Shown: one piece after another, positions 39 to 5,603 of the stretch
How the letters are laid out: each line of letters starts with the position of its first letter
How positions within the stretch are numbered: the first letter of the stretch is position 1
NCBI GenBank assembly: GCA_030606485.1
Contig: JAUWGH010000001.1
Span: 420,001-452,000, forward strand
From: Promethearchaeota archaeon
Lineage (GTDB): Archaea > Asgardarchaeota > Lokiarchaeia > Sigyniarchaeales > SOKP01
DNA length: 32,000 nucleotides
Direction of reading: 5' to 3'
The notes under the pieces: model-generated
Seen by the model: only the letters and a program-made list of their open reading frames with translations
Database searches by the model: none
Told to the model about the DNA's origin: nothing
Program-made: the position numbers and the translations under genes

Positions 39-245
39 TTATTTCTCAAGTTCAAAATTTATTTGCATTCTTACTCGATAGATTAGTTCATCTTTATCTT
101 CTTTTACCTTAACATCAGATTGAATAATAGATATATTTCTAATACCCTTTAAACTCTTTTTTGCTACTTTATAACCTTCTTTTACGGCTTCAGCCCAATT
201 TTTTTCTGATGTTGCTACTATTTCAATTGATTTATAAACAGGCAT
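39..245 (-). CDS. Dodecin family protein
   Basis: 68 aa with the dodecin pattern VYKxIEIVxTSxxxWxxA...I...DVKV...YRVxMxIxF. GAGTGA SD-like motif 7 nt upstream of the ATG. Confidence 0.85.
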   Translation of the reverse strand: MPVYKSIEIVATSEKNWAEAVKEGYKVAKKSLKGIRNISIIQSDVKVKEDKDELIYRVRMQINFELEK

Positions 246-451: not shown

Positions 452-2368
452 TTATACACCAAAGCTATTTAAAAGATTCTGAATATCATCAATTTGTTTT
501 GATATGTTAGCTTTTATGGCTTTTATCTTTTGTGATTTCTTATTAAACTCTTCTGAGGTTATTTCTCCTGAAATTTCTTTTATATCAAGGTCGAGTTCCA
601 TTTTAGAAATATTTGCAAATTTAATCTTTAAATCCATTAAGGTTTTTTCAAGTTCATTTTTTTGTGTGCCTTCTTGATCACTTACGGTTGTTGTTGGGGG
701 TTTGGTTGGGACTGGTGTTGGTTGAGTTAAAGGCTTCGGAATAGAGGGTTGAGGTGGAGCTTTCGGTGGGGCGGGTGGTTGTGGTGGTTTTTTAGAATCA
801 GGTAAAGGCTGTTGATATGGTGATTTAGCTTTAGTAGTGTATGGTTTTGATTTTTGTTGAGGTTGAGGTTCTTCTTGTTTTATAGCACTAAATGGACTAA
901 TTGTTAATGAGGGTTTAGGTCCGGTGGGTTTTGCGGATAAGATATTTGTTGGACGAGGTTTAATTTTAAAATCTTCGAGATTAATTGTTAATTTTGGTTG
1001 TGTGGATTGTGATTTAGGTGAAGTTGGCTTTGGAGTAGCTTTAGGTTCAGGTATAGTTGTTTTTTTTATTGCTGGTGGTTTAGCAATCGCTGGTTTCGGA
1101 GCTGTTTTAGGTTCAAGCACAGTTGGGATTTTTTTTGCTGAAGGTTTAGAAATCGCTGGTTTTGGAGGGGCTTTAGGTTCAGGTACAGTTGATTTTTTTA
1201 TTGCTGGTGGTTTAGGAATTGCTGGTTTTGTAGCAGCTTTAGGTTCAGGTGATGTTGATTCAACCGATGCAGGTTGAGCTTCTTCTTTTTGTTTAACAAT
1301 TTCAACTGGGGTTGTTTCCATCTTTATTAAAATTTCTTTAATCTTCTGGGCTTTTTCATTAAATTCATTTCCTAAACTATCATCACCTAAATCAAGACAT
1401 AAATCTGCAATTTTTTCAAATAATATTAAAGCATTTTGGAAATTGCCTTCATTAAGTGATAATTCAGCTTCTTGTAATAATTTATCTCTCTCAATCAATG
1501 GTTTCAATAAGGGACTTACTTCTGCACTCATTTCAAGGATATCAGCAATTATTGTAATCATTTTATCACGATTTTCACTTCTATTTGCAATCATCTTATA
1601 AGTTTTTAAACCTAAAATGTTCTCAATTTCTGATACAGGAAGTGCAGGTGAAAGATCTTGTTTGTTTCCAATTATTGCAGTATGTGCATGGGGTGCTTCA
1701 TCTTTTATTAAATCGAGGAAAAATCTACTTTTTTCTATATTTTCTAAAGTGGAATCTGTAATGAGAAGAACTGCATCGCTACCTTTAACAAAATTATTCC
1801 ATAAATAGCTAAACTGTTCTTGTCCTGCAAAATCCCACAAATGAAAGTGTAATTTCCCTATCTTAATAGTTGCTATATCTCCAGTTATAGTAGGAATATG
1901 TTCCATCGGTATTTCTTCAGCCCTAATTAATCTAGTTATTGTTGTTTTTCCAACACCAGAAAATCCTACGAGTGAAATTTTGGGGCGTAAATTTTTATGA
2001 ATTAAGTCAATTGTTGGGTCAAATACTTCAAAAGTTTTAGAATCAAATTCAGTTTTGATTATATCCCCAAAAAGATTAAGAAATTCCCTTTTACACCTAA
2101 GCAATTCATTTTTAATATCCTTGGATGAATCAGTTAAACCTGTTACAAATAAGAACATTAAATCTAAATTTTTTTCCGTAGCGTATGTGATTCTATATTT
2201 ATAATAATCATGATATTCAATTTTATCACTTGGTGCAGCTAAAGCATCTTTACATAGTTGTTTGAACAAACTATCAAAATCATCTTGTGTTAATGCCTTA
2301 CCAAATTGACAGGAATATATCAATTCCCCCTCTTTATAAATATAAACTTGCCTTAGAATAATATTCAC
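452..2368 (-). CDS. Longin-like domain + Arf/Rab-like small GTPase + helical (TPR/MIT-like) hairpin + Pro/Lys-rich repeats + C-terminal coiled-coil
   Basis: G1 GFSGVGKT, G2 PTIT, G3 WDFAGQ, G4 NKQD. The ~125-aa N-terminus (LRQVYIYKEGELIY...) is typical of Asgard longin-GTPase fusions. C-terminal GEITSEEF helix pair. The true start may be ATT at 2359, because the GTG at 2368 lies inside AGGTGA. Confidence 0.85.
   Translation of the reverse strand: MNIILRQVYIYKEGELIYSCQFGKALTQDDFDSLFKQLCKDALAAPSDKIEYHDYYKYRITYATEKNLDLMFLFVTGLTDSSKDIKNELLRCKREFLNLFGDIIKTEFDSKTFEVFDPTIDLIHKNLRPKISLVGFSGVGKTTITRLIRAEEIPMEHIPTITGDIATIKIGKLHFHLWDFAGQEQFSYLWNNFVKGSDAVLLITDSTLENIEKSRFFLDLIKDEAPHAHTAIIGNKQDLSPALPVSEIENILGLKTYKMIANRSENRDKMITIIADILEMSAEVSPLLKPLIERDKLLQEAELSLNEGNFQNALILFEKIADLCLDLGDDSLGNEFNEKAQKIKEILIKMETTPVEIVKQKEEAQPASVESTSPEPKAATKPAIPKPPAIKKSTVPEPKAPPKPAISKPSAKKIPTVLEPKTAPKPAIAKPPAIKKTTIPEPKATPKPTSPKSQSTQPKLTINLEDFKIKPRPTNILSAKPTGPKPSLTISPFSAIKQEEPQPQQKSKPYTTKAKSPYQQPLPDSKKPPQPPAPPKAPPQPSIPKPLTQPTPVPTKPPTTTVSDQEGTQKNELEKTLMDLKIKFANISKMELDLDIKEISGEITSEEFNKKSQKIKAIKANISKQIDDIQNLLNSFGV
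1020..1250 (-). repeat. 66-bp (22-aa) in-frame tandem repeat, about 3.5 copies, unit EPKAxPKPAIxKPPAIKKxTxP
   Basis: TTAGGTTCA anchor recurs on the + strand at 1041, 1107, 1173 and 1239 (66-bp period). Confidence 0.9.
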
Positions 2369-3207: not shown

Positions 3208-3603
3208 ATGTTTGATTATAATGAATATAATAGATGGATGAATGAAGCAGACAACACATTAAAATCAGCAGAAATAGATAAGAAAAATGGATTTTTCAAT
3301 TGGAGCTGTTTTAAATGTCAACAAGCTGCTGAGTTTTCATTAAAAGCGATTTTATATGGTTTAGGATCAACTCCTTTTGGTCACTCTTTAACAAAATTAA
3401 CTAGCGACCTAAAAAATCATGATATTAATGTTTCTTCAATATTAACTGCTTGTAAAAAGTTAGATTTACATTACATTCCCTCTCGATATCCAAATGCATA
3501 TTCCACAGGGGCACCATTCGAATATCATGATGAAGTTATTGCTGAAGAGGCTTTAAATAATGCGTCAATAATATTTAATTTTATTAAAGGTATTAAAAAA
3601 TGA
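3208..3603 (+). CDS. HEPN domain protein (COG2250-like)
   Basis: QQAAEFSLKA, GHSL and LDxHYIPSRYP motifs. ATGA overlap with the downstream MNT. Confidence 0.85.
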   Translation: MFDYNEYNRWMNEADNTLKSAEIDKKNGFFNWSCFKCQQAAEFSLKAILYGLGSTPFGHSLTKLTSDLKNHDINVSSILTACKKLDLHYIPSRYPNAYSTGAPFEYHDEVIAEEALNNASIIFNFIKGIKK

Positions 3604-4022
3604 ATACTTCCTTAAAAACTATTAATTATGGCATTAAAAAATTTTGTGAAAATATTATTAAAAAATTAAATCCCAAATGCATTATTTTATACGGATCACT
3701 GGCAAGGGGGGATTTTAACGAGCGAAGCGATGCTGATCTAATTGTGATATCTTCGAAATTACCTAAAAATTATTATGAAAGGGCACAATTACTTTATGAC
3801 TTAATCGAAACTCTTGACCCGATTGAACCTATTGGTTTTACTCCCGATGAATTCATCAATATGATCGAAAACCGGCATTGCACAACCTTATTTGCAATGG
3901 AAGAGGGAAAACCTTTATTTGGAAAAAAATATTTTTCTTTTTTAAAAAAAATTCATAAGAAAATATTCAATAAGTACAAAATCATCAAAGGGAATTCATC
4001 TTGGATTGCCAAAATAGGATAA
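3600..4022 (+). CDS. Minimal nucleotidyltransferase (MNT), partner of HEPN
   Basis: GSLARGDFNERSDAD matches GSx10DxD. Translationally coupled to HEPN. Confidence 0.9.
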   Translation: MNTSLKTINYGIKKFCENIIKKLNPKCIILYGSLARGDFNERSDADLIVISSKLPKNYYERAQLLYDLIETLDPIEPIGFTPDEFINMIENRHCTTLFAMEEGKPLFGKKYFSFLKKIHKKIFNKYKIIKGNSSWIAKIG

Positions 4023-4091: not shown

Positions 4092-4883
4092 ATGGTATTT
4101 TTAATGAATAAATTCTCGTATCACTTCATTGAAAAGGAATCAGATGTCACTATAATCTCTGAGTCAAAAAAAGCAATTAAATTAGCTATTAAATCTTTTT
4201 ATAAACATAGAACGATTCTTGAGAAATTTGTGTATAAAAATGAAATTTTCTTAAAATCTCTTTCACCAATAAAAGTCAAAAATCCTCCCAAAATTATTAA
4301 ACTTATGGTTAAATATTCAGCAATATGCGATGTTGGTCCGATGGCTACAGTTGCTGGCGCTCTTGCTGATATAATGGTAAAAGAAATAAAGATGAATGAG
4401 AAATTATACCCATTGAAAATTGCAGTTGTGGAGAATGGCGGTGAAATCTCAATTAATTCTGAAGAATCTATTAAAGTAGGGTTATATGCAGGAAAAAATT
4501 TGCTGGGTGGAAAATTAGGCTTTCTTATAACTGAAAAAGATTCTCCTTCGGGTATTGGCTCAAGCTCCGCAAAAATTGGTCATGCAATAAGTTTCGGAGA
4601 AGCTGATGTCGTAACTATTTTCGCAACAAATGCCACACTTGCAGATGGAGCAGCAACAAGAATTGCCAATGCCGTAAAAGGGAGAGATATTGAAAAGTCA
4701 ATAAAAAAAGGTTTAGATCTTGTGGATGATCTCGAAGGTGTATTCGGAGCTTTTATTAGTAGGGAGGAAAAAGTAGGACAAGTTGGAAAAATACCAAAAA
4801 TTGTTAAGATTAAAGGTGATGAATATTCATTATTAAAAAAAAAATTAGAGGATTTTTATCCAAACTATGAATTTTTTTACTAG
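4092..4883 (+). CDS. UPF0280 family protein (ApbE-like superfamily)
   Basis: VGPMATVAGALAD, VENGGEI, SFGEADVVT and LADGAATRIAN motifs. Confidence 0.85.
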   Translation: MVFLMNKFSYHFIEKESDVTIISESKKAIKLAIKSFYKHRTILEKFVYKNEIFLKSLSPIKVKNPPKIIKLMVKYSAICDVGPMATVAGALADIMVKEIKMNEKLYPLKIAVVENGGEISINSEESIKVGLYAGKNLLGGKLGFLITEKDSPSGIGSSSAKIGHAISFGEADVVTIFATNATLADGAATRIANAVKGRDIEKSIKKGLDLVDDLEGVFGAFISREEKVGQVGKIPKIVKIKGDEYSLLKKKLEDFYPNYEFFY

Positions 4884-4916: not shown

Positions 4917-5603
4917 TTATTCTTCTTGAAGCCATACACGGAAGTGAGTAAAGTTTACATTATATTCCATAAATTTGTTCTCTATTAACCACAAACATTT
5001 TTCAGGAATAAGAAAAGCTCCTCGCCCCAATTTAAATCCTTTTATTTCTTGTACTAATCCATCTTTTTGATATTGATATACTTTTTTAAAATATCTCTTT
5101 TTAGTTTGATAACCATACAATATTCTTTTTATTTTCATTTTAGAAGATTTATCTAACTCTCTTAAATTGAATTTTATAATTAAATATGGTTTTAATTTCA
5201 AAGTTTTAAAGGGAATCTCCAAAAAATTCGAAGATCCATATATTAGACGACCTTCAGCTAAAATATTTTCAATAAAATTTGAATCCCATTTTTCAATTTC
5301 TTCAGGATAAATAAAAATACATTGGACTAATCGATCTATTTTTTTTTCTAAATCTAAGAAATTATTAAATACATTATTTTCTATAGATTTCGGAGTATTT
5401 TTTTTAAAAAATATACAAATATCAATATCACTCTCATCAGTAAAAGTTCCAGAAGTTAAAGAACCAAAAACCAATATGGAATCAATATTTTTAAATTTAG
5501 ATTGATTTTTTTTTATAAAATTTTTAGTATATTTTATTATTTTTTCTTGTTTTTCGTTTTTTTTAATGAATTTAATATTTTCTTCTTCTAATCTAAGATT
5601 CAT
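4917..5603 (-). CDS. MNT-type nucleotidyltransferase with ~90-aa C-terminal extension (possibly ferredoxin-like, Cas2/PaaX-like)
   Basis: GSLTSGTFTDESDID (GSx10DxD) and ILAEGRLIYG. The extension has YLIIKFNL...RILYG...LGRGAFLIP; its fold is inference only. Confidence 0.75.
   Translation of the reverse strand: MNLRLEEENIKFIKKNEKQEKIIKYTKNFIKKNQSKFKNIDSILVFGSLTSGTFTDESDIDICIFFKKNTPKSIENNVFNNFLDLEKKIDRLVQCIFIYPEEIEKWDSNFIENILAEGRLIYGSSNFLEIPFKTLKLKPYLIIKFNLRELDKSSKMKIKRILYGYQTKKRYFKKVYQYQKDGLVQEIKGFKLGRGAFLIPEKCLWLIENKFMEYNVNFTHFRVWLQEE

Follow-up and report, generated by a model that had tools for sequence, protein, structure and literature searches.

The DNA analysed here is a 32,000-nucleotide stretch of contig JAUWGH010000001.1 of a Promethearchaeota archaeon (assembly GCA_030606485.1, positions 420,001 to 452,000), which is called the window below. 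It carries a gene for a small GTPase in which a longin domain, an Arf-like G domain, a helical bundle, a spacer rich in proline and lysine and a terminal helical hairpin follow one another. The gene for this longin-GTPase comes second in a conserved module of two genes, after the gene for a Roadblock-like protein. The reading frame runs uninterrupted over 638 codons and opens with GTG, a start that fits the N-terminus M/V-x-I-I-L-R-Q-V-Y-I-Y-K shared by the homologs. It is a real and strongly conserved Asgard-archaeal gene: more than 700 full-length homologs exist, the first 365 amino acids (aa) show a mean column identity of 79% across the family, and in its folded part the window protein is about 65-70% identical to most family members.

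The gene product is a multi-domain small GTPase of the cytoplasm and belongs to the 'longin plus Arf-like' type known from Asgard archaea, and no membrane-spanning hydrophobic stretch was found in the 638-aa protein. An earlier note, made from the sequence alone, had proposed the order longin, Arf-like G domain, helices, Pro/Lys linker and helical tail. This order was confirmed, and the two stretches that had been singled out, PPQPPAPPKAPPQP (aa 528-541) and GEITSEEF, are both present in the protein. For the analysis 120 homologs were aligned, and aa 1-365 and aa 455-638 were folded separately with AlphaFold2 (AF2) using family alignments. Structure searches were run with VIA-align against 48,161 solved chains, independently of Foldseek. 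The features are listed in Table 1.

Table 1. Position of the longin-GTPase gene, its parts and the upstream partner gene in the window (numbering of the window).
Feature	Coordinates	Strand	Basis or remark
Longin / Arf-like GTPase / helical bundle / Pro-Lys spacer / hairpin gene, 638 aa	452..2368	-	Stop codon 452-454
Longin domain (predicted), aa 1-126	1991..2368	-	AF2 topology bb-a-bbb-aa and structure matches
Arf-like G domain, aa 127-282, with G1-G5 and catalytic Gln183	1523..1990	-	Pfam Arf, PDB sequences, Foldseek, motifs
Invariant SPLLKPL connector and three-helix TPR-like bundle, aa 283-352	1313..1522	-	AF2, conservation, weak TPR_8
Pro/Lys-rich disordered spacer, aa 353-565	674..1312	-	25% Pro, 17% Lys, net charge +22
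66-nt tandem repeat within the spacer	1025..1250		Tandem Repeats Finder: 3.4 copies, 80% matches, score 305
Linear motif of about 40 aa in the spacer, aa 459-497	878..994	-	Alignment; consensus GLxLNPEDFMVKxRPK...VPKDAKxKLKTSP
Antiparallel helical hairpin, aa 566-638; G-E at its tip is invariant (TGEITxEE)	455..673	-	AF2, conservation
Roadblock-like protein, 164 aa	2428..2922	-	ATG at 2922; 59-nt gap to the GTPase start; directly upstream

RNA-library contigs span positions 1155-2270 of the window at about 97% identity. They come from a metatranscriptome library, represent the corresponding gene in a 97%-identical relative and are a weak sign of expression of the longin-GTPase gene. In a second RNA run (X21) nothing was found on the longin-GTPase stretch. 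On the opposite strand an open reading frame of 117 aa (924..1277, plus strand), rich in Gly, Phe and Ala, lies antisense to the Pro/Lys repeat region. It was rejected as a gene and is regarded as a by-product of the repeat.

Domains of the longin-GTPase

Judged by model topology and structure matches, the N-terminal domain has a longin fold, as the earlier note had claimed. The top match of the whole aa 1-365 model is the longin domain of VAMP7 (4afi_B; Z 15.1, root-mean-square deviation (rmsd) 2.8 A over 120 aligned residues, model residues 1-129). It is followed by synbindin (Z 13.8), Sec22 (Z 13.7) and the N-domains of adaptor sigma and mu subunits (Z 12-13), and adaptor/COPI small-subunit folds are also among the matches. 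In sequence searches aa 1-125 gave no Pfam or NCBIfam match to a longin-type family. The N-domains of 35 members returned stray weak Pfam matches only, and when the PDB sequences were searched with the N-domain and hairpin profiles, the matches were at chance level (V-ATPase H, MITF, UvrA). In the model the longin fold joins the G domain through just four residues.

The G domain is well recognised by Pfam Arf (PF00025), with 74.2 bits on aa 126-258 against a cut-off of 22.3 (E 1.2e-20). Its closest solved sequences are the Asgard ArfR structures 8oun and 8oum (E about 1e-17), followed by Arf1/Arl1 at nearly equal E-values. No Rag or Rab was found among the best 60 solved sequences, and Foldseek retrieved Arf1, Arl1 and GerdArfR1. 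The motifs G1 (GFSGVGKT, 135-142), switch I (HIPTITGD, 157-164), G3 (WDFAGQ, 178-183) and G4 (NKQD, 235-238) are all in place, and HIPTITGD, WDFAGQ and NKQD are invariant across the family. G5 (YKMIAN, 257-262) is atypical, with M259 and A261 invariant in the family. The motif positions thus bear out the intact G1-G4 and unusual MIA-type G5 that had been noticed before. All nucleotide-binding motifs and the catalytic Gln are kept, and by its sequence the G domain is predicted to be catalytically complete. In Arfs an N-terminal amphipathic helix couples GTP binding to membrane insertion; here this helix is replaced by the 126-aa longin domain.

A paralog of 474 aa, encoded at another locus (L016, 1469-2893, minus strand), is built on the same plan as the window protein, from the longin and G domains through helices and a short linker of Lys and Pro to a C-terminus that is helical. 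It may be a pseudo-GTPase, since its G3 motif has degenerated to WDFQLED, which lacks both the Gly and the Gln.

Behind the G domain the earlier note had seen a helical hairpin. The AF2 model shows three helices instead (289-306, 310-326 and 330-352), with a predicted local distance difference test score (pLDDT) of 80-92, and the region of aa 283-352 has a mean column identity of 78%. TPR_8 matches the bundle weakly in 23 of 44 members (best E 9e-4) and MIT in two (best E 0.06); an Atlas feature search with aa 283-356 gave no usable match.

The following segment of about 210 aa is predicted to be disordered. It had been described as a disordered Pro/Lys-rich stretch of about 230 aa; composition and disorder were correct, the length was somewhat overestimated, and the term 'polyproline linker' does not fit, as the longest Pro run in the spacer is two residues. 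Across the members the spacer measures 169-351 aa and contains 20% Pro, 16% Lys and 10% Glu. Its composition is conserved, whereas its sequence and length vary. In the window gene a 66-nt unit encoding 22-aa repeats of the type PEPKAxxKPAIxKPxAxKK occurs 3.4 times, and the spacer length therefore appears to change by repeat expansion. The long arm is not universal, since two divergent members, P0338 (443 aa) and P0311 (460 aa), combine the full N-terminal module and the hairpin with a spacer no longer than a few tens of residues.

Within the spacer, sequence conservation is restricted to the linear motif, where the AF2 model has a raised pLDDT relative to the remaining spacer and shows a short helix. 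The motif is confined to the window's own taxonomic family (f1), and the copy in the window protein itself has diverged. Orthologs of the sister family f3 (loci L013-L015) contain another short conserved spacer stretch, DQLGxLLxKLQxK, which is possibly a lineage-specific helix. Readings of spacer segments as LIR/AIM, NPF, DPF/DPW or YPxL motifs were checked and rejected.

At the C-terminus two helices (566-600 and 605-637) are predicted with a pLDDT of about 97. The helical pair proposed earlier is thus present, as one intramolecular antiparallel hairpin and not as a coiled coil. A loss of the tail in orthologs had been named as an observation that would refute the proposal; spacer and hairpin were found in every full-length homolog. 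The most conserved part of the hairpin is its tip, LDFDMKELTGEITxEE, in which G601 and E602 are invariant, and the end of helix 1 (587-599) has more conserved hydrophobic positions than the packing of two helices requires. Tip and hydrophobic positions may together form a docking surface. A HMMER search of 1.84 billion representatives with the hairpin profile returned 87 proteins, all of them members of this family or fragments, with the hairpin always at the C-terminus.

The earlier note had asked whether the tail resembles CdvA, Vps28 or SHOCT. It stays below the threshold of each of these families and ties with unrelated hairpins. The SHOCT domain (PF09851; PMC3581485), the function of which is itself unknown, shares with the hairpin the position at the extreme C-terminus, the two helices and a conserved Gly and Glu. 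However, the SHOCT model scored 13 bits against a cut-off of 27 (6 of 44 members at E <=0.01), and in a genome scan it matched the hairpin in one of 41 genomes while true SHOCT domains passed. When the hairpin profile was compared by hhalign with eight genuine SHOCT domains of this order, the probability was 82%, over 18 columns only (G-x-I-T-x-E-E-x-x-x-K-K-x-x-L). Only the second-helix half aligns, and the helices here have about 35 residues each, compared with about 28 for a whole SHOCT domain. The hairpin appears SHOCT-like at its tip and, by its scores, would be assigned neither to CdvA, nor to the ESCRT-I steadiness box, nor to SHOCT. Pfam matches of the hairpin to Lip_prot_lig_C (15 of 44 members) and TbpB_B_D (11 of 44) were judged to be composition or coiled-coil noise.

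The Roadblock-like partner gene and the distribution of the module

The 164-aa protein encoded directly upstream looks Roadblock-like by sequence and is extended at its C-terminus by about 50 aa that end in a conserved helix. In a profile search of the PDB its best matches are two Roadblock/LC7 proteins (E 0.059 and 0.41). One UniRef name in its family is Roadblock/LAMTOR2, and its Atlas feature neighbours are Robl_LC7 clusters at 0.88-0.90, in which 13-41% of the members carry Robl_LC7. The partner family has at least 481 members of 159-176 aa.

In all eight loci compared, orthologs of the partner (163-174 aa, 31-44% identical) lie directly upstream on the strand of the GTPase gene. Among 41 sampled genomes of the order 33 contain a partner ortholog. 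In 27 of these, coordinate comparison shows that it shares contig and strand with the hairpin and lies some 2 kb upstream of it; in the remaining six contigs end or are split. The genetic coupling of GTPase and Roadblock gene that is typical for MglAB and Rag-Ragulator is therefore found here in 8/8 loci and 27/33 genomes.

Of 400 genomes of the Asgard phylum, 122 contain the hairpin according to its profile, each as a single copy; all are within the GTDB order of the window (Promethearchaeales/Lokiarchaeales type), and none elsewhere. By family, the hairpin occurs in 110 of 134 genomes of f1, in the single genome of f2 and in 10 of 14 genomes of f3; family f4 has neither the hairpin nor the Roadblock-like gene. 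Complete single-contig genomes are found in f3, and their partner protein is nearly identical to a record of Candidatus Harpocratesius, which the NCBI taxonomy places in Promethearchaeaceae, Promethearchaeales. The homologs carry submitter names as diverse as Hermod-, Hod-, Thor-, Loki- and Promethearchaeota. As the hairpin is confined to one GTDB order, these names are not a sign of wide phyletic spread.

In the window a pair of genes of the toxin-antitoxin type, HEPN (131 aa, E 1e-30) and nucleotidyltransferase (140 aa), with a 4-nt overlap (3208-4022, plus strand), sits between the Roadblock-like gene and a syntenic divergent gene. The pair is absent at this place in loci L009-L012 and for this reason looks like an insertion. 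A larger protein with a nucleotidyltransferase domain (Polbeta/NTP_transf_2; 228 aa, 4917-5603, minus strand) is encoded nearby. The divergent gene (4092-4883, plus strand) encodes 263 aa without a Pfam match, and its product is 57% identical to a divergent neighbour in L012 annotated as PF27030 (AbpE_bact); a related gene adjoins the Roadblock/GTPase pair in three of four annotated loci. Downstream of the module, genes for an Arf/Rag-like GTPase, an aspartokinase-ACT protein and a RACo-type protein recur in three loci and not in the window. The stand-alone GTPase has 174-175 aa (L009 9537-10061, L011 8676-9203, L012 8481-9008). In the window a dodecin gene (39-245, minus strand) lies downstream of the longin-GTPase gene.

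A proposed GTPase switch with a long arm and its alternatives

The earlier note did not recognise the architecture as described. For the core this does not hold, as fusions of longin domains with Arf-like GTPases have been on record from Lokiarchaeum since 2016, with five cases according to the summary of Klinger et al. in PMC4917890. Such fusions are also contained in the AlphaFold catalogue of MK-D1 GTPases (Tran et al., 2024; PMC10933270) and among the 'AArfs' (PMC11914678), and Vargova et al. set an Asgard-only ArfL group apart from the ArfR group, which is sister to the eukaryotic Arfs. The protein studied here shares with these ArfL/AArf fusions the N-terminal longin domain, the Arf-like G domain and the restriction to Asgard archaea. 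Atlas neighbours likewise have the core without the tail, for example a 271-aa Thor-type cluster (TM-score 0.82). What sets the window family apart from them is the added bundle, a 170-350-aa spacer, a hairpin specific to this family and a Roadblock-like partner gene in fixed position. In the literature searched no description was found of these additions together with a longin-Arf-like core. The core type is thus already catalogued, while arm, hairpin and Roadblock pairing are uncharacterised.

We favour, with a probability of about 0.6, a reading in which a GTPase switch is set by a longin/Roadblock platform and connected by a flexible spacer to a docking hairpin. The cis longin domain and the Roadblock partner would form the platform that controls the nucleotide state. 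Longin and Roadblock dimers serve as GTPase platforms (PMC10933270), and the platform is inferred here because of the MglA-MglB, Rag-Ragulator and SRbeta-SRX complexes and the complexes of longin proteins acting as GTPase-activating proteins or nucleotide exchange factors (PMC10933270). The gene pairing recalls MglA-MglB and Rag-Ragulator, where a Roadblock-fold protein likewise goes together genetically with a small GTPase and longin/Roadblock platforms control the nucleotide state. In contrast to them, the G domain is Arf-like, the longin domain is N-terminal and in cis (Rag proteins carry a C-terminal Roadblock domain), and the Roadblock-like protein is a putative binder and regulator. In the model the last longin helix appears to run into strand 1 of the G domain, at the site of the Arf N-terminal helix, so that the interswitch movement driven by GTP could bring the longin domain into a new position.

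The Pro/Lys spacer would act as a long extended leash between switch head and hairpin. Here an analogy suggests itself with the Pro-Lys/Pro-Glu spacers of TonB, which link two functional ends: in both cases a compositionally conserved, repeat-expanding Pro/Lys/Glu segment would join two functional parts, although the window protein is cytoplasmic and unrelated to TonB. The hairpin tip would dock either on a partner protein or on a second copy of itself. A second hairpin copy was also sought in the source genome as a possible hetero-partner, and only the single copy was found. As a result, a GTP-gated switch head would be kept at a distance from its anchoring or assembly site. [quoted passage not shown]

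Several points weigh against this reading. The linear motif is missing from the sister-family f3 orthologs, for which reason it cannot be an essential part of the common mechanism. The Roadblock-like protein has no Pfam Robl_LC7 match, so that its assignment rests on sub-threshold matches. Between the two genes lies the 59-nt gap with a TATA-like box, so that their co-transcription is uncertain, and the RNA contigs do not bridge the genes. A contact of the Roadblock-like protein with the longin and G domains is hypothetical; the complex prediction of aa 1-365 with the Roadblock-like protein gave a score of 0.00 against a mark of 0.32, which speaks neither for nor against binding. No membrane-binding element was found in the longin-GTPase, in which it differs from true Arfs. 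Finally, the AF2 model has a pLDDT below 50 at residues 139-169, and since this range covers the P-loop helix and switch I, the cis arrangement of longin and G domain in the model is unreliable.

An autoinhibited switch like VAMP7 or Ykt6 was considered as an alternative, in which the linear motif or the hairpin would fold into the peptide groove of the longin domain and GTP or the Roadblock partner would free the tail. Longin SNAREs (VAMP7, Sec22, Ykt6) resemble the protein in the fold of the N-domain, with the best matches at Z 13.7-15.1, and in the sequence of longin domain, linker and a C-terminal helical element that can fold back. The best matches are moreover peptide-bound longin domains, namely VAMP7 in complex with either a fragment of delta-adaptin (Z 15.1) or a peptide of Hrb (Z 13.7), and the conserved, locally ordered linear motif would offer a peptide for such a groove. 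However, orthologs of the sister family keep everything else and lack this motif, and in the window protein it is diverged, which makes autoinhibition rather unlikely. A SNARE proper was rejected: unlike longin SNAREs the protein has a GTPase inserted, and neither a SNARE-family or SNARE-motif match nor a transmembrane or lipid-anchor signal was found.

In a further alternative the protein would be an adaptor linked to ESCRT, with the hairpin as a homolog of CdvA or of the ESCRT-I steadiness box in the headpiece and an MIT-like bundle binding ESCRT-III tails. CdvA and steadiness-box hairpins are antiparallel, of similar length and superpose at about 1 A. The Sulfolobus islandicus CdvA fits the hairpin with an rmsd of 0.9-1.1 A over 70-75 residues (24% identity, Z 10.8) and ESCRT-I headpiece chains fit with 0.7-1.4 A (Z 9.6). 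In addition, Pfam CdvA (PF18822) matched the isolated tail with E 2e-4, and Asgard genomes hold many steadiness-box fusion proteins (PMC10936438). But the CdvA score of 21-22 bits is below the cut-off of 30, the model matched only 5 of 44 members (E <=0.01) and also 10 of 14 unrelated control genomes (E <=1), and OST1, SMC, CHMP4B and designed hairpins match equally well (Z 9.6-10.9). Foldseek found no match of the tail model at E 0.001 (E-values 0.4-1.7), and the family hairpin profile retrieved no CdvA or ESCRT-I chain from the PDB sequences. The bundle matches MIT far less often than TPR_8, and neither the window nor any of the four annotated loci (L009-L012) contains an ESCRT or Cdv gene. 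Taken as a whole this role is quite improbable.

The proposal that the proline-rich arm recruits profilin-actin, SH3 or UEV domains via PxxP, polyproline or P[ST]AP motifs is very unlikely to be correct. The arm has 20-25% Pro and many PxxP motifs in every member, but the 14 PxxP motifs of the window spacer are the number expected by chance (13.3 +/- 2.8 in shuffled sequences), stretches of at least five Pro were seen in 22 of 118 members, and P[ST]AP was seen in five of 118. The only conserved part of the spacer sequence is a motif that is not a proline motif, and Loki- and Odin-type Asgard profilins have been reported not to bind polyproline (PMC8410842).

Hardly more convincing is a device similar to the receptor of the signal recognition particle (SRP), that is, a cis SRX-SRbeta unit with a charged disordered linker as in SRalpha, acting at a membrane or translocon. 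The pairing of a longin-like domain with an Arf-family GTPase mirrors SRX-SRbeta, and SRalpha likewise possesses a long linker, charged and disordered, that bears a recognition motif. Pfam SRP-alpha_N matched the N-domain in one of 35 members (E 0.017), a neighbouring Atlas cluster of the G domain carries SRPRB, and the top structure match of the hairpin is the cytoplasmic domain of an Asgard OST1 (Z 10.9, tied with the others). All of these signals are weak or tied, however, and in difference to SRbeta-SRalpha the window protein is a single fused chain without an SRP-GTPase NG domain or a membrane anchor; the four annotated neighbourhoods contain no translocon or SRP genes.

Returning to the switch with a docking hairpin, a bolder version of it would see in the Roadblock protein and the longin-Arf-like GTPase an order-wide, single-copy 'long-reach' device, which by means of its Pro/Lys leash holds the switch tens of nanometres away from the anchoring hairpin. 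This is speculative and we regard it as improbable. If it were true, the device might serve to place or gauge cellular structures such as protrusions, the envelope or division sites, and the pair would represent a prokaryotic stage of the longin/Roadblock-GTPase platforms known from Rag-Ragulator, the SRP receptor and trafficking systems.

Small GTPases number in the dozens in Asgard genomes, and longin and Roadblock proteins are numerous there too. To match GTPases and regulators among them has been called hard, since the genes are usually not in operons (PMC10933270), and for MK-D1 Tran et al. describe that GTPase genes generally do not lie in operons with Roadblock or longin genes (PMC10933270). 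The window family is an exception, with one highly conserved copy per genome fixed beside one Roadblock-like gene. It therefore offers a rare matched pair of candidate regulator and GTPase, with orthologs in complete genomes of Promethearchaeaceae, a family with cultured strains, and the partner of its unexplained tail could reveal what an Asgard GTPase switch controls.

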